A DNA stretch of 45,130 nt, from the sequence record MK373771.1; one strand, 5' to 3'. The DNA comes from Escherichia phage vB_EcoP_R4596. The notes under the pieces were generated by a model, which saw only the letters and a list, made by a program, of their open reading frames with translations, did not search any database and had not been told where the DNA came from. Shown piece after piece: positions 2,408 to 44,391 of the stretch. Position numbers and translations under genes: made by a program. Every line of letters begins with the position of its first letter. Positions within the stretch are counted from its first letter, which is position 1.

Positions 2408-3331
2408 ATGACTACTGAAAACACCCTCCTGTCTGTTCGTGAAGCTGCAACCGCTGAGATCAAGCAACACTTAGACAATATCGGCACTTCTTACATCAAA
2501 GTTGGCGCTTGTCTTAATGAGTTACGCGGTGACTTTGAAGGTCAAAAAGACTTTTTGGCTTATGTAGAATCAGAATTTGGAATCAAGAAAGCACAATGTT
2601 ACAAGCTGATGAGTGTAGCCCGTGTCTTTGAAGGCGATGATCGCTTTAAAGGCGTGGCGATGCGTGTAATGCTGGCACTTGTTCCTTTCGCTGATGAAAA
2701 TATCATCATGGAGAAAGCCGCAGAACTTGCCGCAGCGGGCAAGCTGGACACTAATGCCGTAAATGCCCTGATTGATCCTAAGAAAGAGACAAAGGCCGAG
2801 ACGGTACAATCTAAGGCTGAGGCGGTAAAACCGCAGGAGAATGCGACTGAGGCCGCAGAAACTATGCAAGGACATGCGACCTTTGAGGATTTCATCTTAG
2901 AGAAGGCGAAAGAGGAATTACAAAGTGTGCCGCCAGTAAGTGAGTCGGGTAACGACGAATCCGCACCGTGGGAAGATGAAAGCAAGCCGGAAGCGCCAAA
3001 GGCCGCGCCACTGGATAACACGGCTAACACGGAGAACGCCGCTATGTCTGGCCTACTGGCACAAATTAAGGCACTGACTGAGCAATTACAGGCAGCTAAC
3101 GACCGCATCGCCGCCCTAACCAGTGCACGGGAAAGTAAGAAAGCGGCTGCGCCTATGCTTCCGCAGTTTAAATCCTCTTGCTTCTACGCTCGCTTAGGCT
3201 TGAGCGCCGAGGAAGCAACGAAGAAAACAGCAGTGAATAAGGCACGCCGTGAACTGGTTAAACTAGGGTATGGTGAAGGTCATGAGGCATGGCCTTTGAT
3301 CTCTGAGGCAGTAGAAGAATTAACTAAGTAA
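2408..3331 (+). CDS. Hypothetical early protein (307 aa) with low-complexity acidic/Ala-rich centre and coiled-coil C-terminal region
   Basis: Long ORF; AAGGTGA Shine-Dalgarno before ATG 2408 (track begins at GTG 2399); no kinase or other motif recognized. Confidence 0.6.
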   Translation: MTTENTLLSVREAATAEIKQHLDNIGTSYIKVGACLNELRGDFEGQKDFLAYVESEFGIKKAQCYKLMSVARVFEGDDRFKGVAMRVMLALVPFADENIIMEKAAELAAAGKLDTNAVNALIDPKKETKAETVQSKAEAVKPQENATEAAETMQGHATFEDFILEKAKEELQSVPPVSESGNDESAPWEDESKPEAPKAAPLDNTANTENAAMSGLLAQIKALTEQLQAANDRIAALTSARESKKAAAPMLPQFKSSCFYARLGLSAEEATKKTAVNKARRELVKLGYGEGHEAWPLISEAVEELTK

Positions 3332-19796: not shown

Positions 19797-20006
19797 ATGG
19801 GTGTCGTGAAGAAGGCATTTAAAGCAATTGGTCTTGCACCTGAGACGCCGAAAATTGAGGCGGCTAAGACTCCGGCACAACAGTTAGCGCGTGAACCGGA
19901 GACTACGGCAGAGGATATTACATTAGGCCAAGATGATAGCGCAACGGCTGCGGCACGTGGTAAGCGTGGACTGATTCGTCCAGTGGCATCGAGCTTAGGG
20001 GTTTAA
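19797..20006 (+). CDS. Small virion-associated protein, possibly gp6.7-like (69 aa)
   Basis: AAGGAGG Shine-Dalgarno; located just before the portal gene; composition loosely like T7 gp6.7. Confidence 0.45.
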   Translation: MGVVKKAFKAIGLAPETPKIEAAKTPAQQLAREPETTAEDITLGQDDSATAAARGKRGLIRPVASSLGV

Positions 20007-22712: not shown

Positions 22713-23921
22713 ATGTCTACACCGAACACTCTGACTAACGTTGCTGTGTCCGCATCTGGTGAGGTTGACAGCCTTCTTATTGAGAAGTTTAATGGTAAGG
22801 TAAACGAGCAGTACCTGAAAGGTGAGAACATTCTGTCCTACTTTGATGTACAGACGGTAACTGGTACTAACACGGTTAGCAATAAATATTTAGGTGAAAC
22901 TGAGTTGCAGGTGTTAGCACCGGGTCAGTCACCTAATGCTACTCCAACTCAGGCCGATAAAAACCAGTTGGTAATTGATACCACTGTGATCGCCCGTAAC
23001 ACCGTGGCACACATCCACGACGTACAGGGTGACATCGACAGCCTTAAGCCTAAGTTGGCTATGAACCAAGCCAAGCAACTGAAGCGTCTGGAAGACCAGA
23101 TGGCAATCCAGCAGATGCTGTTAGGTGGCATCGCTAACACCAAAGCAAAGCGTAACAAACCTCGTGTAAAAGGACACGGCTTCTCTATCAACGTTAACGT
23201 GACTGAAAGTGAAGCACTGGCTAACCCGCAGTATGTCATGGCTGCTGTAGAATATGCTCTGGAGCAGCAGCTTGAACAGGAAGTGGATATCTCTGATGTA
23301 GCGATCCTGATGCCGTGGAAATTCTTCAACTCGCTGCGTGACGCAGACCGCATTGTAGATAAGACTTACACTATTAGTCAGTCCGGTGCTACTATCAGTG
23401 GCTTTGTTCTGTCTTCCTACAACTGCCCTGTTATCCCGTCTAACCGATTCCCGACATTTGTACAGAGTGCTCCACATCACTTACTGTCTAACGAAGATAA
23501 CGGTTATCGTTATGACCCTACCGCAGAGATGAACGGCGCTGTAGCTGTGCTGTTTACTGCTGATGCATTGCTGGTAGGTCGCACCATTGAAGTAACAGGT
23601 GACATCTTCTATGAGAAGAAAGAGAAGACTTACTATATTGATACCTTCATGGCTGAAGGTGCAATCCCTGATCGTTGGGAAGCTGTGTCTGTAGTTACCA
23701 CTAAACGCAACGGAACATCTGGTGATGCTGAAGGTACAGGCGCTGACCACGCAACCGTACTGGCTCGTGCACAACGTAAGGCTGTCTATGTCAAGACCGC
23801 AGGCGCTGCGGCTGCATTCTCTGCTGCACCAGTAGGTATCCAAGCAGAAGACCTAGTAGCAGCTGTACGTGCTGTAATGGCAAATGACATCAAGCCGACT
23901 GCACTTAAACCTGCTGAGTAA
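22713..23921 (+). CDS. Major capsid protein (402 aa)
   Basis: Position after scaffold, own strong promoter and terminator, AAGGAG ribosome-binding site; no direct sequence match recalled. Confidence 0.8.
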   Translation: MSTPNTLTNVAVSASGEVDSLLIEKFNGKVNEQYLKGENILSYFDVQTVTGTNTVSNKYLGETELQVLAPGQSPNATPTQADKNQLVIDTTVIARNTVAHIHDVQGDIDSLKPKLAMNQAKQLKRLEDQMAIQQMLLGGIANTKAKRNKPRVKGHGFSINVNVTESEALANPQYVMAAVEYALEQQLEQEVDISDVAILMPWKFFNSLRDADRIVDKTYTISQSGATISGFVLSSYNCPVIPSNRFPTFVQSAPHHLLSNEDNGYRYDPTAEMNGAVAVLFTADALLVGRTIEVTGDIFYEKKEKTYYIDTFMAEGAIPDRWEAVSVVTTKRNGTSGDAEGTGADHATVLARAQRKAVYVKTAGAAAAFSAAPVGIQAEDLVAAVRAVMANDIKPTALKPAE

Positions 23922-33800: not shown

Positions 33801-34658
33801 GGTTCAGAGAAAATTGTAGCTCGCTCTATCAATAAGAGATTAAAGCAGCACTTGATGGGTGAGAGACAATTACCTAAAGCAGACCTTGAAGAAGTAGGCC
33901 TAAGTGAAGATGTCATGAAAAGACTTAAGCGTCACTTTGATGACAACCCTCTGTACGCTGAGTACAATGGAGAAAAAGTTCGTATGCTGAACTTTGATGC
34001 TATGGAGCCAGACCTGAGAGAGACAGTGGGTGTTGCTGTGCGAAGAATGTCAGGCCGTCTTATTCAACGTAACTTCATTGGCGATGAAGGTATCTGGATG
34101 AATAAATGGTGGGGCAAGGCATTAACGCAGTTTAAGTCATTCTCTATTGTCTCTATTGAGAAACAGCTAATCCATGATTTACGAGGTGATAAGATTCAGG
34201 CTGCACAGATACTTGCATGGTCTACTTTACTAGGTTATGCATCTTATGCACTACAGATGCAGATGCAAGCGATTGGTAGGGAGGATAGAGACAAGTTCTT
34301 GAGGGATAAGTTTGACACACAGAACATCGCTATGGGTGTCTTTAATAAACTTCCACAAGTTGCAGGCTTTGGTTTAGCTGGTGATGCTTTGGCAACCTTT
34401 GGCCTAATGCCAGACTCCATGATGCAAGCACCGGGACGCATGGGTTTCCGTCAGCAAGGCTTTGGGGATTTGGTAGCAGGTGCTGGTGTAATAAGTGATA
34501 CAGTTAATTTGTCACAAGCACTGGTTAAGTATGCCAGTGGAGACGATGATGTCTCTACGAGGCAGTTGGTAGACAAGGTTCGTCGCCTTGTTCCTTTGGC
34601 AAATACTATTGGTGTGGGTCAGATGACTAAAGCCAGTGTAGATTTATTGGAGGATTGA
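30855..34658 (+). CDS. Large internal virion protein (gp16-like, 1267 aa)
   Basis: Size and position match T7 gp16; GGAGG ribosome-binding site. Confidence 0.8.
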   Translation: MVDSINQNWVAVTQRKLPPTFSQIAEAERKAEAQRANDKVFQTALESEWALYGGQRAYERHTTEFAEQEGYEVPESTKDELSKLYGYEIAQDIVKNVKSPEELQFRMSNAAADKDRADILARNGFTGFSAQIAAGILDPVGWAASLVAAPVAGAVKVGRLGRIIKTAALSGAENAALEAILAQGDYQRGVDDVLAAAGFGMIMGGTIGAATRERIASAGSRTAAERADAVVDDLDTVVKGADEFDSSAARAVREAMEYDAYMAARNYEPLRAREVDADMAILSHTDNLKANASVRMSASEKGQLKKQIRQLEAEAATLKGKKIDTVAEAAAAKGAPKSAADRLDLDVQKKALARRFDEPLADLQARLDELNAKLSRVNNVGKAKEELKRFSSLSREEQIKELGLDAPVRKVEMTRAVRDAIDAIRAERKKTPTEIHAEQVAEDAIKQRADDSVGAKRVEGSEIAGEQFDLSKNMEELMDDLAREAYQSEVRPINLKGLGSVSSVILNSENPVFRGLGLRLLENAQGGAYQGKTASILSDVYGNLIRHAERNRYNDGFSQFIKDNNLRAVDYLNPATTRDFNNQIYTAIVRGIPEDTPRGVKLAAEGIADKLKKALEIRKQAGERGFEDVQSAKDYIPVIYDGIKITEAVNKLGSSEAVIHLLSKGYQTGKYKLGKKAADALAKVQYIRASDSTLSSRVAFDRVVSQQQQAQLIEDLKRAGVPDHIIDNFIEGTELAEMAESVSNRAKASMGINTQAEYGGLKVQDLLNTNVGELAENYGKEAAGGAALAAMGFPTRQSVLNAIDAAERAGRNMAGSNAKAIKQLRAEAEMLRDAVKLIYGNTIDADPNSGIVRGTRRVREITGLLRLGQMGFAQIPELARAISKMGLGTVLKSIPATKFLRSRAARKGGTAQGELLEPELREMEELLGYIGEDNWLTGWNVRHDEFGETADNLGKLSAIIDNGLAMGSRINTILSGFKAVQGGSEKIVARSINKRLKQHLMGERQLPKADLEEVGLSEDVMKRLKRHFDDNPLYAEYNGEKVRMLNFDAMEPDLRETVGVAVRRMSGRLIQRNFIGDEGIWMNKWWGKALTQFKSFSIVSIEKQLIHDLRGDKIQAAQILAWSTLLGYASYALQMQMQAIGREDRDKFLRDKFDTQNIAMGVFNKLPQVAGFGLAGDALATFGLMPDSMMQAPGRMGFRQQGFGDLVAGAGVISDTVNLSQALVKYASGDDDVSTRQLVDKVRRLVPLANTIGVGQMTKASVDLLED

Positions 34659-37600
34659 TGAGTTATACATATACAGACCATGTAGCTAATGGCTCACAGG
34701 TTACATTCCCTTTTCGTTTTGCAGGCAGAGATAAGGCATACATTAGTGCGACAGATGTCCAAGTGGGTTTTGTAGAAGCAGGCACTTGGCTGCCAGCAAC
34801 AGGTTGGACGCTAAGTGGCACCAATCAGATCACTTTCTTAACCCCACCGACAGAAGGTAAACAAATACGAATCAGACGTATTGTAGATAAAATAAACCCA
34901 TATGCTTACTTCGAGCGGGGTAATGTTTTAGATATTAACTCTTTAAATAACTCATTCATTAAGAACCTGCAAGTCAGTCAAGAAATCCTTGATGGCTTCT
35001 TCCCAGAAGGTTTCTACTTCAAGACAGACTTAGACATGGGTGGTCATAAGATTATAAACCTACATGAGGGTTCTGAGTCAGGTGATGCTGTAAATTATGA
35101 TCAGTTTAAAGAGTTATCAGACCGCGTTAATGAGATTGAATCAGATTTAACAGGTTTGTCTCACAGAACAGTACCTATGTACTATATCGCAACTGGTGGA
35201 GAGTCACGTTGGGAGATCGGTCACTGGACTTTCGACGCTGCAATATTGTTTATTAATGGTGTATTCCAGAACCAAAACCTAGGAGCTTTTACCATCAGCA
35301 ACAACGGTTTTAACTTTGCAGAACCATTGCAGAAGGGGGATGAAGTATATGCCCTTGTAGGAAGCCGCATTGCAGCACCCGATGAGTATGTAACAATCTC
35401 TGACTTGAAAGACCCAGATAAAGCATGGAGGCTAATTGGACGTAAGTACCCATTTGCGACAGATGGAACTTTTATGTCAAAAGTGGTACATGATGTAGAC
35501 TACTCCAATATCTTCATTGGAGCATCAGGACTTAGTCAAGGCTTCTGTATTGTAGACACTCCGCAAGGTGCTCGCATGTTCTTCCATCAACCTATCCCAA
35601 GCACTAATAAGGTTCGTTTCGTTGAAACAACCTTTAACCCTGAAGGGGATAATGAAAATCCTTCTGTTATTTCATTCAGCCAGGAACTGGATGATATTGG
35701 ACACCAGACTGTGTGTGGTGTATATGAGGCGGGGGGTGTGCGTTTGTACACCTTGAGTGCAGATGAAAAATCTTATTATATCATAGATTGGTTAGGTAAT
35801 AATACGTCTAATACACATATGCGTAAGGTGCAGATCCCTACGGAGGGTATCTACTCTAAGGACCTATTTGTCTCAGTGGGCATGTCAGAAGATACTAAAA
35901 CGCTGGTATTCCATGCAACCACCAATACTCAGGCTTTTGGTAACAAGGATGATGCGAGAGCTATTTACCTCTTCGATAGAAAAACATTGGATTCAACCTC
36001 AACTAGAGGTCTTAAGCGTAGATTCGAAGTAGGAGCACCTGCTGCACCAGATATGGCCTTCCAAGGGGTTGCTTGTGATGACCGCTTCTTGTATATATAT
36101 CATGGATATAATGGTGTCCTGCTGTCTCACAAGATCTCCGTCTTCACCCTCTCAGGGGAGCATGTACGGGATATTCCCGTTGATAGTGTGCGTGTAAAAT
36201 ATGGAGAAAGGATGTATGGTGACGCAGATTTAGGATACCCTGTGTTGCAGGAACCGGAAGGTTTGGCAATGTATAAAGGGAAACTTTATATGTTGTGCAT
36301 GGATTTCTGGTACAAAAATGCAAGTGTAGTTACTTTCGCTGGAAGGACTTTTGCTACAAGAAAATCTTCAGCGTTTTCTGGGTACAGCCCATTACAATCC
36401 TCATACTGGACACCTACGAACCTAATACCACCTACGGGTGCACCAGAGTATAACAAGACTGCTACTTATTCCTGCTCTAATGCTACTAAGCTCAGTAAAG
36501 CTATTGTTAGCTTAGAAATAGATGATGGCACAGGCTTCCCTGCAAGTGTTGGGTGTTCTTTGCCAGAGAGTAGCGCCAGTGTATACCTAAACAACCGAGC
36601 GATGAATATGGCTATTGGCCCGAATGAAAACTTCCAGTTTGGGGTATTTCACCAGAACCTACAGTCATACAAAAACCTGTTACAGCTCAATAGAGAGAAC
36701 CCAAATACGGATGGATCAGCGGCTGTGTGGAGGTTGTTCGGAGGTGCGTTCACAGATGACATTCAGAATGAAAGATTTGTTCAGATTAAGCATAGACTTA
36801 ATCCCACACAAGATGCCATGGAGCTTCGTGCGGATGTTGACCTTACGAGCGGTGGTGGGATTAACTTGTATTCTATGAACGACTCTGCCTCTCCTGGTCG
36901 AGTAAGGCTATATTGTACTGACGGGTATTCTTATTGGTCAGCTCTACTGAGTCCTGCATCCCCATCTTTTCACCCTGATCAAGATAAGACTCTAAACTTA
37001 GGTACAGCAAACAACCGTTGGAACCTAGTCCATTGTCAAGGTATCCGTATCATCTCTAACGACGAGTTACAGAAGCAAGTCTTTCTTGAAACTACCCGTA
37101 AAAAAGGTGCACTACAGATCTCCACTTCCGGCAATCTAGGGGTGTGGGATAGTAGCGCAGGTACTTATGTTGTGGCAACCAGACCTGATGGTACAGGCTT
37201 TTCACAGGTAGAGATGAGCTTCAAAGGTGATGTTTTTCCTGAAATAAATAATACTTACAATTTAGGTCGTGAGAATAAGGCATGGGCTAATGCCTACTTT
37301 CAAAACGCACCGACTGTTGTCTGTGATGCCAGACTTAAAACAGATGCTAGGGAGTTAACAGCCGCAGAGAAATCCGCATTCTTAGAGATCTCTAAACTTC
37401 CGGCAGTTTGGCAATGGCTTGCTAAACTGGAAGTAGAAGGAGAGGATGCCCGCTTACACTCTGGATGTACTGTCCAAGCTGCTATCTCGGTTATGGAGAA
37501 ACATGGCCTAGATTGGACTAAGTATAGTGCTTTCTGTTATGACAAATGGGATGCCAAGGAGGCTGTCTATGATATAGTGGATGGTAAGGCTATCCTTGTT

Positions 37601-37741
37601 GAAGAGGCAGTTGAGGCTGGCGACCGTTATCGTCTTCGTAGAGAAGAGCTGATGTGGTGGTGCATGAAGGCACAGAATGCTTGGATTGAATCTATTGAGG
37701 GGAGGCTGGCGAAATTAGAAGATAAACTCAAGGAGGTGTAA
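34658..37741 (+). CDS. Tail fiber with T7 gp17-like N-terminal anchor and C-terminal intramolecular chaperone-like (peptidase S74-type) domain
   Basis: N-terminus YTYTDHVANGSQVTFPFRF...ISATDVQV...IRIRRIV follows the T7 gp17 adaptor pattern; C-terminal CDARLKTDARELTAAEKSAFLEISKL resembles the SDxRxK autoprocessing motif. Confidence 0.8.
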   Translation: MSYTYTDHVANGSQVTFPFRFAGRDKAYISATDVQVGFVEAGTWLPATGWTLSGTNQITFLTPPTEGKQIRIRRIVDKINPYAYFERGNVLDINSLNNSFIKNLQVSQEILDGFFPEGFYFKTDLDMGGHKIINLHEGSESGDAVNYDQFKELSDRVNEIESDLTGLSHRTVPMYYIATGGESRWEIGHWTFDAAILFINGVFQNQNLGAFTISNNGFNFAEPLQKGDEVYALVGSRIAAPDEYVTISDLKDPDKAWRLIGRKYPFATDGTFMSKVVHDVDYSNIFIGASGLSQGFCIVDTPQGARMFFHQPIPSTNKVRFVETTFNPEGDNENPSVISFSQELDDIGHQTVCGVYEAGGVRLYTLSADEKSYYIIDWLGNNTSNTHMRKVQIPTEGIYSKDLFVSVGMSEDTKTLVFHATTNTQAFGNKDDARAIYLFDRKTLDSTSTRGLKRRFEVGAPAAPDMAFQGVACDDRFLYIYHGYNGVLLSHKISVFTLSGEHVRDIPVDSVRVKYGERMYGDADLGYPVLQEPEGLAMYKGKLYMLCMDFWYKNASVVTFAGRTFATRKSSAFSGYSPLQSSYWTPTNLIPPTGAPEYNKTATYSCSNATKLSKAIVSLEIDDGTGFPASVGCSLPESSASVYLNNRAMNMAIGPNENFQFGVFHQNLQSYKNLLQLNRENPNTDGSAAVWRLFGGAFTDDIQNERFVQIKHRLNPTQDAMELRADVDLTSGGGINLYSMNDSASPGRVRLYCTDGYSYWSALLSPASPSFHPDQDKTLNLGTANNRWNLVHCQGIRIISNDELQKQVFLETTRKKGALQISTSGNLGVWDSSAGTYVVATRPDGTGFSQVEMSFKGDVFPEINNTYNLGRENKAWANAYFQNAPTVVCDARLKTDARELTAAEKSAFLEISKLPAVWQWLAKLEVEGEDARLHSGCTVQAAISVMEKHGLDWTKYSAFCYDKWDAKEAVYDIVDGKAILVEEAVEAGDRYRLRREELMWWCMKAQNAWIESIEGRLAKLEDKLKEV

Positions 37742-37935: not shown

Positions 37936-38218
37936 ACATGCAGCCACAGAGGATGAAGTAGGCATCCTTCATGGCGCTATTACGAAGATGTTTAATAAGA
38001 AAGCACAGGCTATACTGGACACTATAGAAGAAGACCCTGCTTCTGCTATGCACTTAGTGTCAGGTAAGGATATTGGAGCCATGTGTAAGTGGGTTTTAGA
38101 TAATGGCATTACTGCAACCCCTGCTGCACAGCAGGAAGAATCTAAGTTGTCTAAGCGTCTCAAGGCTATCAGAGAGGCGTCCAGTGGTAAGATCATTCAG
38201 TTTACTAAGGAGGATTAA
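37919..38218 (+). CDS. Terminase small subunit (gp18-like)
   Basis: Position immediately upstream of and overlapping terminase large; GGAGGA ribosome-binding site before ATG 37919. Confidence 0.55.
   Translation: MSVHNKHAATEDEVGILHGAITKMFNKKAQAILDTIEEDPASAMHLVSGKDIGAMCKWVLDNGITATPAAQQEESKLSKRLKAIREASSGKIIQFTKED
38010..38032 (+). promoter_or_regulatory. Phage-RNAP promoter inside the terminase small gene
   Basis: CTATACTGGACACTATAGAAGAAG. Confidence 0.6.
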
Positions 38219-40113
38219 TGGCTAAGGCAAGAGAATCACAAGCGGAGGCTCTTGCCAGATGGGAGATGCTACACGAGTTACAGCAGACCTTCCCTTATAC
38301 GGCAGAAGGTTTGCTTCTCTTTGCTGATACAGTTATTCATAATTTAATTGCAGGTAGTCCTCATCTGATTCGTATGCAGGCAGACATCTTGAAGTTCCTA
38401 TTCTATGGGCACAAGTATCGCCTCATCGAAGCGCCCCGTGGTATCGCTAAAACTACGCTGGCAGCAATCTATACGGTGTTCCGTATCATTCATGAGCCTC
38501 ATAAGCGTATCATGGTTGTATCCCAAAACGCCAAGCGAGCAGAGGAAATTGCAGGTTGGGTGGTCAAAATCTTCCGAGGATTGGACTTCCTAGAGTTTAT
38601 GCTGCCAGACATCTACGCTGGCGACCGTGCATCCGTTAAGGCATTCGAGATTCACTATACACTGCGTGGAAGCGACAAGTCCCCTTCTGTATCCTGCTAC
38701 TCTATTGAAGCAGGTATGCAGGGTGCTCGTGCAGACATCATTCTAGCAGATGACGTTGAATCTATGCAGAATGCGCGTACCGCAGCAGGCCGTGCATTAC
38801 TTGAGGAATTGACCAAGGAATTTGAATCTATCAACCAGTTTGGTGATATCATCTACCTTGGTACTCCTCAGAACGTCAACTCAATCTATAATAACCTTCC
38901 GGCTCGTGGCTATTCCGTGCGTATCTGGACGGCTCGCTATCCTTCTGTAGAGCAGGAGCAATGCTATGGTGACTTTCTTGCACCTATGATCGTGCAAGAT
39001 ATGAAGGATAACCCAGCCTTGCGAACAGGTTATGGCTTAGATGGTAACAGCGGAGCACCTTGTGCCCCTGAGATGTATGACGATGACGTACTGATTGAGA
39101 AGGAAATATCTCAGGGTGCTGCTAAGTTCCAGCTTCAGTTCATGCTTAACACTCGCATGATGGATGCGGATAGATACCCATTACGCATAAACAATCTAAT
39201 CTTCACCTCGTTTGGTACAGAGGAAGTTCCTGTGATGCCTACTTGGAGTAATGACTCCATCAACATCATTGGTGATGCGCCTAAGTATGGTAACAAGCCT
39301 ACAGATTTCATGTACAGACCTGTAGCTCGCCCATACGAATGGGGTGCTGTCTCCCGCAAGATTATGTATATTGACCCTGCTGGTGGCGGTAAGAACGGAG
39401 ATGAAACGGGTGTAGCCATCGTATTCCTGCATGGCACGTTCATTTATGTGTATCAGTGCTTTGGTGTACCTGGCGGATACCGAGAATCGTCCCTGAATCG
39501 CATTGTGCAGGCCGCAAAGCAGGCAGGGGTTAAAGAGGTATTCATTGAGAAAAACTTTGGTCATGGCGCGTTTGAGGCCGTTATAAAGCCATACTTTGAA
39601 CGAGAATGGCCTGTGACTATTGAAGAGGATTATGCCACTGGTCAGAAAGAACTCCGTATCATTGAGACACTGGAGCCGCTGATGACTGCGCATAGGCTTA
39701 TCTTCAATGCTGAGATGGTCAAGTCGGATTTCGCTTCAGTACAGAATTACCCTCTGGAATTGCGGATGTCTTATAGTTTGTTCCACCAAATGTCGAACAT
39801 CACTATTGAGAAGAACAGCCTTAGGCATGATGACCGCTTAGACGCTCTGTATGGCGCTGTGCGTCAATTAACTTCCCAGATAGACTATGACGAGGTTACT
39901 CGAATTAATCGCCTCAGAGCGCAGGAGATGCGCGATTATATACAGGCGATGAATACACCTAAACTTCGTCGGGCTATGCTGTACGGCGATTATGGTGATG
40001 AGCGAAGAACAACCAACACCTCCTTAGCGATGCAGCAGCGGGTTTACGGTCAGAATTGGAGGAGCCGCTCTGGGTCTAGAAATACACTTTCCTCAAGGAT
40101 TTCAAGGATTTAG
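38218..40113 (+). CDS. Terminase large subunit (gp19-like, 631 aa)
   Basis: Size and position; ATPase-like segments (IILADDVESM Walker B-like); AAGGAGG ribosome-binding site. Confidence 0.88.
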   Translation: MAKARESQAEALARWEMLHELQQTFPYTAEGLLLFADTVIHNLIAGSPHLIRMQADILKFLFYGHKYRLIEAPRGIAKTTLAAIYTVFRIIHEPHKRIMVVSQNAKRAEEIAGWVVKIFRGLDFLEFMLPDIYAGDRASVKAFEIHYTLRGSDKSPSVSCYSIEAGMQGARADIILADDVESMQNARTAAGRALLEELTKEFESINQFGDIIYLGTPQNVNSIYNNLPARGYSVRIWTARYPSVEQEQCYGDFLAPMIVQDMKDNPALRTGYGLDGNSGAPCAPEMYDDDVLIEKEISQGAAKFQLQFMLNTRMMDADRYPLRINNLIFTSFGTEEVPVMPTWSNDSINIIGDAPKYGNKPTDFMYRPVARPYEWGAVSRKIMYIDPAGGGKNGDETGVAIVFLHGTFIYVYQCFGVPGGYRESSLNRIVQAAKQAGVKEVFIEKNFGHGAFEAVIKPYFEREWPVTIEEDYATGQKELRIIETLEPLMTAHRLIFNAEMVKSDFASVQNYPLELRMSYSLFHQMSNITIEKNSLRHDDRLDALYGAVRQLTSQIDYDEVTRINRLRAQEMRDYIQAMNTPKLRRAMLYGDYGDERRTTNTSLAMQQRVYGQNWRSRSGSRNTLSSRISRI

Positions 40114-40137
40114 TATTTACTGGACACTATAGGAGGA
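40114..40137 (+). promoter_or_regulatory. Phage-RNAP promoter followed by AT-rich TAGGT-repeat region
   Basis: GTATTTACTGGACACTATAGGAGGAAG. Confidence 0.75.
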
Positions 40138-40271
40138 AGACCAAGAGAGTAAAAGGAATATTATAGGATAATATAGGATTACCTAGGTTATATAGGTGTA
40201 CCTTAGTATGGGTGTACTCCTGTACACCCTATTCTTACTTACTATTTACTTATACGTATAAGGAGTATTAG

Positions 40272-40553
40272 ATGGCTAATGATTATAGTAATCAGCCCTT
40301 AACTGGTCGCTATGACCGTAAACAGATTACACCAACTAGTGAAGCATTAATGCTCCCTGTTGTTACAGAGGAGTCTATTAAGAAGAAAGCCAATGTTATC
40401 AATGATGCAACCAAATCTGGTAAACAGAAAGCAGCAATGGTGTGTCGTCCTGTAGGTGGCACTCTTGAGATTGCCATTGCTACTGGTAGCAAAGAGGATG
40501 CAGATTGGTTGTCTGTTAAAATGGATGGCGTTGGTTTTATTACACCGGCTTAA
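40272..40553 (+). CDS. Paralog 1 of a tandem small-protein triad (93 aa), unknown function
   Basis: AAGGAG ribosome-binding site; shares KKK..IN....SGKQKAAMV...G.LEIAIATGS with the next two ORFs. Confidence 0.65.
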   Translation: MANDYSNQPLTGRYDRKQITPTSEALMLPVVTEESIKKKANVINDATKSGKQKAAMVCRPVGGTLEIAIATGSKEDADWLSVKMDGVGFITPA

Positions 40554-40570
40554 TAAAAGGAGAAGATAAT

Positions 40571-40858
40571 ATGTCTAAGTATGGCGATGCAGGTACGACT
40601 ACTGGTCAGGCTTTTCGTGTAAAAGCAGTACAAACTATTGCAACTGCAATCCCTATGCCTATCGTGGCAGAAGCTGACCTTAAAAAGAAAGATCATCCAA
40701 TTAATATTGAACACCTATCTGGTAAGCAGAAAGGTGCTATGGTGGTTGTAGATAAAGGAGATAATAGCCTTTATATTGCTATTGCACGTGGTTCTGCACC
40801 AACTGACCAGTGGGATGTAACTACTATGGAAGCTGTACCTGTAACACCAGGAGCTTAA
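40571..40858 (+). CDS. Paralog 2 of the triad (95 aa)
   Basis: AAAGGAGA ribosome-binding site; DLKKKDHPINIEHLSGKQKGAMVVV...LYIAIARGSAPTDQW. Confidence 0.65.
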   Translation: MSKYGDAGTTTGQAFRVKAVQTIATAIPMPIVAEADLKKKDHPINIEHLSGKQKGAMVVVDKGDNSLYIAIARGSAPTDQWDVTTMEAVPVTPGA

Positions 40859-40859
40859 T

Positions 40860-41549
40860 ATGCTGGGAGTAACAGGACAACGCAATAAGAATGTAGCCAC
40901 CAAAGTAGTGGCTGATTTAGCTACTGCTGCTACTGTCGAGGAATTACGAGACACACATAACTCTATTAACCGTGCTGACCTTTCTGGTAAACAAGAAGGT
41001 TCTGTTGTTCTTGTTAAGAAAGAGGATGGCAACTATTCTATCTTTGTAGCAACAGGTAGCAAGCCTACTGATGTTTGGAAAGAGTTGTCTCCAACAATAC
41101 CAGAGCAAGAGATGCCTGCTGAATATATTGATATGGTTGATATTCAAATTCATCAAGACTCTGCAAGTAACTTACGTATGGATTCTTCTCGCACGAGCTT
41201 AATACAAACACCAATGTGGGATACTGAAGGTGAATTGCTATTCCGTAATACCCTGAGCGCAACATGTTCTTGTACCATTCTTGCTGATGGTGCATCTGGT
41301 GTTCGTCAGGATTTTAATTTTAAGATTAATGGAATCTTAGAGCAAGAAGAGCAGTATTATGACATTGACACTCTTATGTGCTCTATTCATTCTGCAACAA
41401 CAACTAATGGTCTTACACTGTGTATGCCAGATGTTAAGAGCGCAAAGACCAATAAGATGGTAGTAAAGGTCGACACTATGCAGTCATTAACAATGAGTTT
41501 TGATCTTAACTTCCTTGTTGAATGGACGTCACCTACGAGGTTACTATAA
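40860..41549 (+). CDS. Paralog 3 of the triad with about 135-aa C-terminal extension (229 aa)
   Basis: LSGKQEGSVVLV...YSIFVATGSKPTDVW at the N-terminus; AGGAG ribosome-binding site; start overlaps the previous stop. Confidence 0.65.
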   Translation: MLGVTGQRNKNVATKVVADLATAATVEELRDTHNSINRADLSGKQEGSVVLVKKEDGNYSIFVATGSKPTDVWKELSPTIPEQEMPAEYIDMVDIQIHQDSASNLRMDSSRTSLIQTPMWDTEGELLFRNTLSATCSCTILADGASGVRQDFNFKINGILEQEEQYYDIDTLMCSIHSATTTNGLTLCMPDVKSAKTNKMVVKVDTMQSLTMSFDLNFLVEWTSPTRLL

Positions 41550-41893
41550 TGCTAAACGAATACTTCAAGCGTAAAGAATTTGCTTGCCGTTGTGGGTGCG
41601 GTACATCCACTGTTGATGCTGAGTTACTACAGGTAGTAACAGATGTGCGTGAGCACTTTGGTGCTCCTGTGGTTATTACTTCTGGTCATCGTTGCGCCAA
41701 GCACAATGCTAATGTAGGTGGAGCTAAGAACTCCATGCATCTTACTGGTAAGGCTGCTGACATTAAGGTCACTGGTGTTAGCCCAATGGAGGTACGTGCG
41801 TACCTATGCAATAAGTACACTGATAAGTATGGCATTGGTGCTTATCCTACTTTTACACATATCGACGTTAGAGGTAACAAAGCACGATGGTAG
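41549..41893 (+). CDS. Endolysin, peptidase M15-like zinc peptidase
   Basis: FKRKEFACRCGCG...ITSGHRCAKHNANVGGAKNSMHLTGKAADIKV...GIGAYPTFTHIDVR matches the M15 pattern (SxH...D...H). Confidence 0.8.
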   Translation: MLNEYFKRKEFACRCGCGTSTVDAELLQVVTDVREHFGAPVVITSGHRCAKHNANVGGAKNSMHLTGKAADIKVTGVSPMEVRAYLCNKYTDKYGIGAYPTFTHIDVRGNKARW

Positions 41894-42465: not shown

Positions 42466-42489
42466 TGATTTACTGGACACTATAGAAGG
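42466..42489 (+). promoter_or_regulatory. Phage-RNAP promoter upstream of the tailspike
   Basis: GATTTACTGGACACTATAGAAGGG followed by 5' hairpin CCGCTC-GTTTGA-GCGGAC. Confidence 0.75.
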
Positions 42490-42570
42490 GATAAAGATAG
42501 TGCCGCTCGTTTGAGCGGACTATTACTAGCCAATCTTCATAGGGAGGATTGGGAAGTAATAGGAGAATTT

Positions 42571-44391
42571 ATGGCTAAACTAACGAGAGTCACTGACTGG
42601 CTTGTTAAGGTGAAGTCTAGACTCATTGGTGCAGTAGAGAGATTGCTTGAAGATAAGCTATCTGACATGGTTAGTGTTAAAGATTTTGGTGCTAAAGGCG
42701 ATGGTGTTACAGATGATACACAAGCCTTCCTTGCAGCTTACAATGCTAAGAAGCAAACAGGAGGTAAGATCTACATACCGGAAGGTACTTACATTGCTTA
42801 CAATATCCCACTAGACAGTGGTATTTATTGGCAAGGTGCTGGTGTGGGTGCAACGACCATAACACAACCTAATGGTAACAACAAAGATATCTTTGTAACC
42901 AGAGACTTTAATACCCTCACAGGTGTTGGTTATCTTAAGGATGCACCTATTGGCTTCGGCATCAAAGATCTAACTGTTGATGGTAATTATCTTGCAGATT
43001 ATAAGAGTGCCGCCATTGGTGGTGACACTGTTATGAATAACGAGAAAGGCTATGGAGTTAAGATCTTTGGCTCTAAGTACACTATAGACATTGAGATAGT
43101 CAACTGTGCTCAGGTAGGTTTCTACAGCGAAGCTGGCGACTATACAGGTTATGGTGATGAGCAGGCTTGTCATGTGAACTTACGTGGTAGGGTCTTCGGG
43201 AAAGAAGCAATCGTGCATCGTGGCCCAGCTGACATAGAGTTTGGTCAGGTATTTATGGGGTCTGCTGCATGGTTGCCTACCCTAGCACAGCGCAGATCTA
43301 ATCTTGTCATGTCTGAACTCTTTGAAGGTGAACCTGTTCATGTCATGGTTACAGATGAGACAGAGGGTTATCATGGTCATCATGAGTTTGAGACTATGCA
43401 CCTTTATGGCAACCTGTCTGGTTATGGATATTATGCCAAAGGCACTGGTCGTCTGAAAGGCAACCATCTCATTTGTGAGAACTGTCGTGGTGGGTTCAAG
43501 TCAGATACCCGTACATGGGGTAAGATTAGTCTGTTAGAGTGTCATAACAATGGTCGTGCTCCATCTGCTTTAGCAGGAACTTTACCTAAGTTCTACGACA
43601 TTCATAACTTATCTCGTCAAGGTTTTGTTATTGATGCAGTAGTTCGTCGTGTTTCTGTAGAATCTTCTGAATATACTGCATTACGAGATGAAGGTCGTAA
43701 TAGTGTAGTAAGAATGTCTTACTTCGTAGCAGGTTCAGATGCAGAAGGTGCAACCTCTGGTAATATGGCAGAATTACTTAGTGAATCCTCTACGTTTGAT
43801 ATTAACTGTGTGAACACCAAAGACCATGCAGTTCTTCTGGAGGGAAAGGCTAACAAGGTTAATATTGTATCTAAGAACCACTCTGGTGACAAAGCATTGA
43901 TTAAGAGGGTAGCTGGCTCTGCTTCAGGTAACTTATCTAACTCTATAGAGATAACCTGTAATAATGCTTCCAGCATTATTCATCTTGATGGTCTTGTTAC
44001 CACTGAGCGATGGGATGTGTCTGGCTTGCTCAAAGAAGGTCAGACTATCTTCTCCTCTGATAGCTCAGTGATGGATTTGTATAACCGTGCAGTTGTTACT
44101 AACTTGTCTGTACGTATTGGTTCTAAATCCAAGAGTAGTAGAGATGTTGGTCGTGTTAATCTAGAGAATACAGCAGGGCAGAAGTCTGTTACTGTAGAGC
44201 ACAACTACTTCATTAAGCCTGATGCTTCTCAGATTACATTAGGTTGCTATGACCCTGACCCGACACTACAAGATAAGCTCAAGTACCTACGTGTAAGTAA
44301 TATCACAGATACTGACTTTACAGCAGTATACGAATTGGAGCAAGGTGAACAGCCAAGTGGCCCGATTGTTATGACTTGGGGTATCTTCTAA
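42571..44391 (+). CDS. Tailspike / putative polysaccharide depolymerase (beta-helix, pectate-lyase-like)
   Basis: VSVKDFGAKGDGVTDDTQAFLAAYNA is typical of right-handed beta-helix glycanases; likely ATG 42571 after AGGAGA (track begins at TTG 42511). Confidence 0.8.
   Translation: MAKLTRVTDWLVKVKSRLIGAVERLLEDKLSDMVSVKDFGAKGDGVTDDTQAFLAAYNAKKQTGGKIYIPEGTYIAYNIPLDSGIYWQGAGVGATTITQPNGNNKDIFVTRDFNTLTGVGYLKDAPIGFGIKDLTVDGNYLADYKSAAIGGDTVMNNEKGYGVKIFGSKYTIDIEIVNCAQVGFYSEAGDYTGYGDEQACHVNLRGRVFGKEAIVHRGPADIEFGQVFMGSAAWLPTLAQRRSNLVMSELFEGEPVHVMVTDETEGYHGHHEFETMHLYGNLSGYGYYAKGTGRLKGNHLICENCRGGFKSDTRTWGKISLLECHNNGRAPSALAGTLPKFYDIHNLSRQGFVIDAVVRRVSVESSEYTALRDEGRNSVVRMSYFVAGSDAEGATSGNMAELLSESSTFDINCVNTKDHAVLLEGKANKVNIVSKNHSGDKALIKRVAGSASGNLSNSIEITCNNASSIIHLDGLVTTERWDVSGLLKEGQTIFSSDSSVMDLYNRAVVTNLSVRIGSKSKSSRDVGRVNLENTAGQKSVTVEHNYFIKPDASQITLGCYDPDPTLQDKLKYLRVSNITDTDFTAVYELEQGEQPSGPIVMTWGIF

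Follow-up and report, generated by a model that had tools for sequence, protein, structure and literature searches.

Three tandem genes between the large terminase and the endolysin of Escherichia phage vB_EcoP_R4596 encode paralogous proteins that we take, as a cautious preference, to be accessory components of the virion surface: two units consisting of an anchor domain only and one display protein, in which an anchor is followed by an exchangeable beta-sandwich. Comparisons within and between genomes identify ORF1, ORF2 and ORF3 as true paralogs with a common anchor domain of ~80 residues; the short pair is the conserved core of the locus, and the third gene is an optional accessory cassette.

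A promoter-driven triad between terminase and endolysin

The window analysed here, that is, the whole 45,130-nt stretch of record MK373771.1, represents the genome, complete or nearly so, of a K1E/SP6-like podovirus (Autographiviridae, Molineuxvirinae, Vectrevirus). Every long ORF lies on the + strand, and positions 40100–41600 share 99.8% identity with the Escherichia phages vB_EcoP-CC1 and CC2. A first-pass annotation, made from the sequence alone, had described three ORFs of 93, 95 and 229 aa between terminase and endolysin, and these are indeed present where it placed them. The locus comprises the following features:

38218–40113, + strand: large terminase gene (TerL), the upstream neighbour of the triad
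40117–40135, + strand: late promoter for the phage RNA polymerase (phage-RNAP; SP6/K1E-type), the 19-mer TTACTGGACACTATAGGAG, driving the triad and the downstream lysis genes
40136–40271, + strand: 5′ leader with 3–4 (T)ATAGG repeats, a CCTAGG palindrome and a hairpin, conserved across four genera
40272–40553, + strand: ORF1, 93 aa, anchor domain only, ortholog of K1E gp41 and Kp7 gp45
40571–40858, + strand: ORF2, 95 aa, anchor domain only, ortholog of K1E gp42 and Kp7 gp46
40860–41099, + strand: anchor domain of ORF3 (residues 1–80; the 229-aa ORF as a whole spans 40860–41549)
41100–41549, + strand: exchangeable distal all-beta domain (beta-sandwich) of ORF3 (residues 81–229) and stop codon

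Each ORF is preceded by a Shine-Dalgarno (SD) site (AAGGAG at 40260–40265 for ORF1, AAGGAG at 40557–40562 for ORF2 and AGGAG at 40849–40853 for ORF3), and the three protein sequences contain no transmembrane or signal segments. The gene downstream encodes an endolysin (Peptidase_M15_3, Pfam E 5e-34); its most likely start, 41549, overlaps the stop of ORF3 and is the one given in the annotation of CC1 (99.8% identical).

That the triad has its own promoter, which the first-pass annotation had located at 40114, is substantiated by the 19-mer TTACTGGACACTATAGGAG: this phage-RNAP promoter sequence occurs ten times in the window, where chance predicts 0.03, and the copy ahead of the triad is kept at the same position in K1E, K1-5, SP6, Koku, PM93 and others. 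The next promoter after the triad lies at 42470, with no terminator predicted in between. Two receptor-binding proteins are encoded elsewhere on the + strand, namely a 1028-aa protein in which a T7-tail N-domain is combined with a tailspike body and a Peptidase_S74 chaperone (34655–37741), and a 626-aa pectate-lyase-like tailspike (42511–44391) with its own promoter at 42470.

Within the 5′ leader, positions 40210–40229 form a hairpin, GGGTGTAC-TCCT-GTACACCC, that appears terminator-like in a terminator scan. Its SP6 counterpart, GGGAGGTA-TCC-TACCTCCC, amounts to a set of compensatory changes, and pairing is preserved by such changes in both SP6 and Kenya-K30. An Rfam search of the leader (40136–40271) returned no family; its possible roles are RNase III processing, stabilisation of the mRNA by the hairpin, or pausing or attenuation of the RNAP.

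A shared anchor domain, mislabelled as a thiolase

Pairwise BLASTP relates all three proteins to one another (ORF1 versus ORF2, 41% identity, E 4e-12; ORF2 versus ORF3, 39%, E 6e-12; ORF1 versus ORF3, 39%, E 1e-6) in alignments that span 49–79 residues, confirming the tandem paralogy noticed earlier. The core motif read off in the first-pass annotation was essentially right as well, its N, SGKQ, A, G-S and W being invariant in all three; in ORF1 numbering, the invariant positions include N44, S49-G50-K51-Q52, A70, G72, S73 and W79. As a module, the anchor consists of an N-terminal arm beginning TG(Q/D/K), a small helix/beta core with the motif IN...SGKQ.G...A.G..P.D.W, and an end that reads (V/I)TP(A). 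Searched with a hidden Markov model of the domain, the window yields just three copies, one each in ORF1, ORF2 and ORF3, and none elsewhere.

Database searches assign the proteins to families with little functional information. In a PHROG scan, ORF1 and ORF2 hit phrog_2725 (E 2e-37 and 7e-45) and ORF3 hit phrog_32357 (E 7e-123), the function of which is unannotated there. Pfam and NCBIfam searches with all three proteins yielded no match, PDB sequence searches with single sequences and family profiles gave nothing significant, and a profile search of a 5.8-billion-protein collection retrieved mostly ORF2 orthologs, with no informative names among them.

The one name that does circulate, acetyl-CoA acetyltransferase (thiolase), reaches the short proteins through phrog_2725 and through RefSeq products of K1E gp41/42, SP6 gp42/43, K1-5, PM93 and others, and has the name alone in its favour. 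The 2016 annotation of UAB_Phi78 already carries 'Putative Acetyl-CoA acetyltransferase' (PMC4837284). ORF1 and ORF2 are only 93–95 aa long and match no Pfam or NCBIfam family, those of thiolases included, nor any PDB sequence. Thiolases measure about 390 aa and have N and C domains with a catalytic Cys/His/Cys. Since proteins of 93–95 aa without a thiolase signature cannot be thiolases, the label is spurious; we reject this identity on grounds of size and missing signature and give it practically no credence.

An AlphaFold2 (AF2) model of ORF3, built with 30 homologs, reached a mean pLDDT of 73.8 and comprises a disordered N-terminal arm, a small helix/beta fold at residues ~21–80 (pLDDT 81–91) and an all-beta C-domain. 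A Foldseek search of the PDB gave no match to the anchor fold at E<=1e-3. Against BFVD, the N-domain was present in other podovirus proteins and, at weak significance (E 0.016–0.074), headed proteins annotated as tail fibre, pectate lyase and SGNH esterase.

A conserved pair and an exchangeable third gene

The order TerL, anchor gene(s), endolysin holds in every locus for which flanks were available (about 40, drawn from 25 fetched loci and 20 from an unbiased pattern scan of IMG/VR). Among the unbiased loci, 12 of 20 carry two short genes only; in the others a third gene joins the pair, long in six cases and short or truncated in two, and SP6 matches this last class. The ORF1–ORF2 pair occupies this slot in every SP6-like locus examined, spanning Vectrevirus, Zindervirus, Ulipvirus and Acadevirus. 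ORF2 is the most conserved of the three, with 103 homolog clusters, all on contigs of at most about 44 kb. The third gene is naturally missing in the close relatives ULINTec4 and K1E; ULINTec4 shares 93% DNA identity across ORF1–ORF2, yet its ORF2 directly adjoins the endolysin. Copy-number variation, which the first-pass annotation had proposed to look for in relatives, is thus found, with the third gene being optional. It is this census, with the pair standing alone in many loci and ULINTec4 lacking the third gene, that marks the short pair as core and the third gene as accessory.

Several loci show irregularities of their own. SP6 gp44 (locus L007, 2545–2790, 81 aa) is an anchor cut at profile position ~56–62 and is followed by the tiny gp45 (2813–2980); judged by its sequence, gp44 looks like a decayed remnant of the long third paralog. 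In Kenya-K30 (L005, Zindervirus), the second anchor gene (2157–2510) has an odd C-terminal tail and overlaps the annotated start of the third gene (2465–3208) by 46 nt, while the annotated N-terminus of the latter precedes the conserved 'VTGQR' start, so that the overlap is possibly a mis-called start or a frameshift junction. Just upstream of the anchor pair, the K1E large terminase gene (L001, 873–3517) is split into 40A and 40B by a homing-endonuclease gene, 40.5, and TerL is likewise in two pieces in several IMG/VR loci.

All three anchors are under purifying selection. In comparisons with close relatives, dN/dS was 0.15 for ORF1 and 0.19–0.20 for ORF2, and 0.09 for the ORF3 N-domain (versus Koku), values similar to that of the endolysin next door. 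With dN/dS of 0.09–0.20, diversifying selection on the anchors is rejected, and the earlier description of the paralogs as diversifying does not hold for a pair that is conserved across genera.

The distal part of the third gene behaves differently. Relative to Klebsiella phage Koku, identity amounts to 91% for ORF1, 89% for ORF2 and 87% for the ORF3 N-domain, but only 42% for the ORF3 C-domain, and synonymous divergence rises from 0.39 to 0.77 at the domain junction; the identity drop and the synonymous jump together indicate recombinational module exchange rather than fast point evolution. Across relatives, the N-terminal anchor of the third gene is always kept and the distal part varies, with the following types of module:

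ORF3-type beta domain: at least three diverged versions
Ig domain: Kp7_47 and P0223 (locus L022), with Pfam Ig_3 above cut-off in Kp7_47 and P0223
Collagen triple-helix repeats plus a C-terminal domain: P0219 (locus L020), collagen E 1e-13
438-aa form: P0168 (locus L023)

In some third-slot proteins, Gly-rich linkers precede beta domains, and a long gene located after a triple-anchor gene (locus L011) contains collagen repeats. The extension of ORF3 itself, described earlier as 135 aa long and Cys-containing, exists, although it measures about 146–150 aa (residues ~81–229); the four cysteines of ORF3 are not conserved in the closest variant C-domains. The C-domain is a beta-sandwich with some resemblance to fibre knobs, with nothing retrieved from the PDB by Foldseek at E<=1e-3. 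Pfam detects no Ig domain in ORF3, the domain by which display proteins of the Hoc/pb10 type are recognised.

Split and fused forms of the anchor

Beyond the SP6-like phages, the anchor profile matched 261 of 1.84 billion representative proteins at E<=1e-3, each match being the representative of one 50%-identity cluster. Among the best 150 of these 261 and a few close relatives, 83 are single short anchors and 26 an anchor with a C-terminal extension, while about 30–40 proteins of 256–320 aa bear three tandem anchors per chain. Three further proteins of this set, P0207, P0213 and P0226 (389–407 aa), combine three anchors with a distal domain of ~130 aa, an architecture collinear with ORF1, ORF2 and ORF3 laid end to end (417 aa summed). 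At the level of loci, a triple-anchor gene immediately follows a T7-type terminase and precedes another anchor gene (L012), or is succeeded by a triple-anchor-plus-extension gene (L019). Moreover, tblastn aligned a triple-anchor protein collinearly across K1E gp41–gp42, and a metagenomic protein, P0103, is a chimera of the N-terminal part of gp41 and the C-terminal part of gp42, joined at their common SGKQKGAMV stretch.

Such fusion and fission of anchor genes implies joint action of the anchors. A collagen stalk is made of three chains, and since fused triple-anchor chains also exist, the anchor probably works as a trimer or pseudo-trimer. A fixed 1:1:1 heterotrimer as the only model is rejected because many relatives have just two anchor genes. 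When the concatenated ORF1, ORF2 and ORF3 were modelled by AF2 with the natural fusions as alignment rows, overall pLDDT was 78.7 and that of the domains 84–92, and the N-terminal arm of ORF3 rose from ~30–36 alone to ~62–73; pTM, however, was only 0.51. We therefore regard the domains as robust and their mutual packing as not demonstrated, and we do not claim a modelled heterotrimer despite the confident domains.

Homologs in virions of Klebsiella phage Kp7

Kp7 (ON148527, Molineuxvirinae) fills the same slot with TerL, Kp7_45 (88 aa), Kp7_46 (88 aa), Kp7_47 (178 aa) and endolysin, in this order. By BLASTP, ORF1 is 42% identical to Kp7_45 (E 1e-17), ORF2 51% identical to Kp7_46 (E 6e-20), and the N-domain of ORF3 34% identical to that of Kp7_47 (E 8e-9). 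GenBank record ON148527 labels Kp7_45–47 'minor capsid protein' or 'minor capsid protein with Ig-domain', and mass spectrometry of gel bands from purified Kp7 virions identified 'minor capsid proteins (gp32, gp45, gp46, and gp47)' (10.1101/2024.05.19.594906, section 3.4). Virion association is thus established for the Kp7 homologs, and the R4596 triad would be expected to share it. With respect to the capsid in particular, the placement derives from the depositors' label only, given that 'minor capsid protein' is a name for small proteins found by mass spectrometry, gp32 among them. Searching the literature for proteomic studies of SP6-like virions yielded little else.

Among close relatives, a capsid has been deposited only as PDB 7y3t (connector 7y22), the major capsid protein (MCP) of which matches that of the window at E 1e-184; PDB chains, those of 7y3t included, gave no match to Kp7 gp32, gp45, gp46 or gp47 or to the family profiles. 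The window MCP ORF (22713–23921, +) encodes 402 aa, as compared to 363 aa in both the 7y3t chain and Kp7_35, the match covering query residues 1–362, and thus has a C-terminal extension of ~40 aa relative to the two. A homolog of Kp7_32 is also present in the window, as a 69-aa ORF (MGVVKKAFKAIGLAPETPK...RPVASSLGV; 19797–20006, +) just upstream of the portal gene.

The Ig domain of Kp7_47 matches PDB chains named 'Decoration protein' (5lxk/8zvi, E about 1e-16), which we take to be T5 pb10. It also matches neck-whisker and tail proteins (9occ, 9c2d), and because both kinds of protein match, the Ig domain cannot tell capsid from tail.

Discussion

What would these proteins do for the phage? If our preferred reading is right, the triad would be made late and in quantity from its own phage promoter and strong ribosome-binding sites, the late promoter and strong SD sites being what fits abundant late proteins. 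The anchors would then fix the proteins onto the particle surface, most likely that of the capsid, with ORF1 and ORF2 acting as plain decoration or stabilising units and ORF3 as an anchor bearing an outward-displayed, Hoc/pb10-like beta-sandwich of 150 residues. This distal module may weakly bind host-surface or environmental glycans, and would be exchanged or lost among relatives. Several lines of evidence point to the virion surface: the Kp7 homologs, of equal order, sizes and slot, were found in virions by mass spectrometry; the Ig, collagen, Gly-linker/beta and knob-like modules are typical of displayed phage proteins; and strict TerL–anchor–endolysin synteny, purifying selection, cross-genus conservation and gene fusions befit such a role. 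The presence of the triad in R4596 virions, its capsid location, trimeric state and adhesin role are what we infer from these comparisons.

Where on the particle would the proteins sit? The main rival of the capsid surface is the tail, neck or adaptor, where the short proteins would form small fibres or whiskers and the long paralog a minor receptor-binding protein. We consider this unlikely, though worth keeping in view: a fixed N-terminal module with a swappable distal one is the classic architecture of receptor-binding proteins, the C-domain of ORF3 resembles fibre knobs, the Ig domain of Kp7_47 matches neck-whisker and tail proteins, and BFVD places the N-domain at the start of tail fibre, pectate lyase and SGNH esterase proteins. 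The matches to the enzyme-bearing proteins, however, are weak, and the T7-type fibre docking site is already used by the adaptor/tailspike gene at 34655–37741 (Phage_T7_tail domain). In addition, an anchor-only pair lacking any distal part is hard to explain as fibres, and the Kp7 authors grouped these proteins with capsid rather than tail proteins. Visible gel bands of the Kp7 counterparts from purified virions also speak against the notion that the triad consists of assembly or lysis helpers that co-purify with particles, be it as tailspike or capsid chaperones or as lysis-cassette regulators. Although the adjoining terminase gene and co-transcription with endolysin, holin and spanin, with no terminator predicted before the promoter at 42470, would suit such helpers, a chaperone would have no use for distal display modules, and transmembrane or signal segments are lacking; we hold this explanation to be improbable.

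We rate as similarly improbable that the triad comprises non-structural host-interaction or counter-defence proteins, as the first-pass annotation had proposed for tandem diversifying paralogs at the genome end. Small proteins without an assigned fold, of variable copy number, near the genome end and under their own promoter invite this thought, and the automated annotation of one record lists an 'ocr-like anti-restriction' PHROG under the region. Our own PHROG scan, by contrast, returned phrog_2725 and phrog_32357 and no Ocr family, the triad sits in the late structural/lysis region, and collagen, Ig and knob domains are extracellular or display modules. A counter-defence locus is further contradicted by the low dN/dS, the cross-genus pair and the detection of the Kp7 homologs as virion components. 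For the third gene, with a distal module that relatives exchange for beta-sandwich, Ig or collagen forms, host interaction as such stays plausible. Homology to a structural (virion) family, which the first-pass annotation had set against its own proposal in combination with a fixed three-gene arrangement, is present, while the arrangement is not fixed.

Returning to the virion-surface reading, the triad has several known counterparts. With Kp7 gp45–47 it shares the slot, the homologous anchor and the logic of two short proteins and one long; they differ in that gp47 bears an Ig module where R4596 ORF3 has an unrelated beta-sandwich of ~150 aa. T4 Hoc and T5 pb10, which consist of a capsid-binding domain and Ig-like domains, likewise combine a particle-binding module with an outward, dispensable and exchangeable beta domain, but the anchor of the triad is unrelated to them in sequence, and the R4596 display protein is accompanied by two anchor-only paralogs. 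The closest functional analogy for a short/long set of paralogs is provided by alpha-claw and alpha-paw of PhiM1, a podovirus of the same family, in which one decoration protein has the capsid-binding motif only and the other an additional fibrous extension, and the two occupy different quasi-equivalent capsid sites (PMC11440229). The PhiM1 proteins, however, are helix-turn-helix dimers at 2-fold axes, whereas the triad anchor is a helix/beta domain and probably trimeric. Lambda gpD and T4 Soc resemble the short proteins in being small (~90–110 aa), abundant, late-expressed and plausibly trimeric, with no sequence or fold match to a gpD- or Soc-type fold in the triad.

A more specific, and rather doubtful, scenario is that the anchor represents an undescribed decoration fold that sits as a trimer at the local three-folds of a T=7 capsid, with each paralog, two short and one long, specialised for one class of position. 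The three symmetry classes would correspond to 20 strict and two sets of 60 quasi-equivalent positions, and the unit might come as separate genes in SP6-like phages and, in metagenomic podoviruses, as one fused chain that forms a pseudo-trimer and may or may not bear a distal domain. If true, the split and fused forms would make a natural pair in which to study how quasi-equivalence is read by decoration proteins.

In one GenBank record and in one preprint, the family already goes under the name minor capsid protein. The R4596 genes are thus unexceptional members of a family that is poorly characterised, and they reveal no new biological principle, short/long paralogous decoration proteins and Hoc-like display being known. 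What the present analysis contributes is the correction of a misannotation, 'acetyl-CoA acetyltransferase', that has spread over RefSeq records of K1E, K1-5, SP6 and many therapeutic-candidate phages, and the definition of an anchor domain family, occurring in split and fused forms, that has neither a Pfam model nor a solved structure. In therapeutic podoviruses of K1, K5, Salmonella and Klebsiella hosts, it marks a dispensable and exchangeable display slot, an anchor plus a cassette, as a candidate for phage display or the engineering of adhesion.
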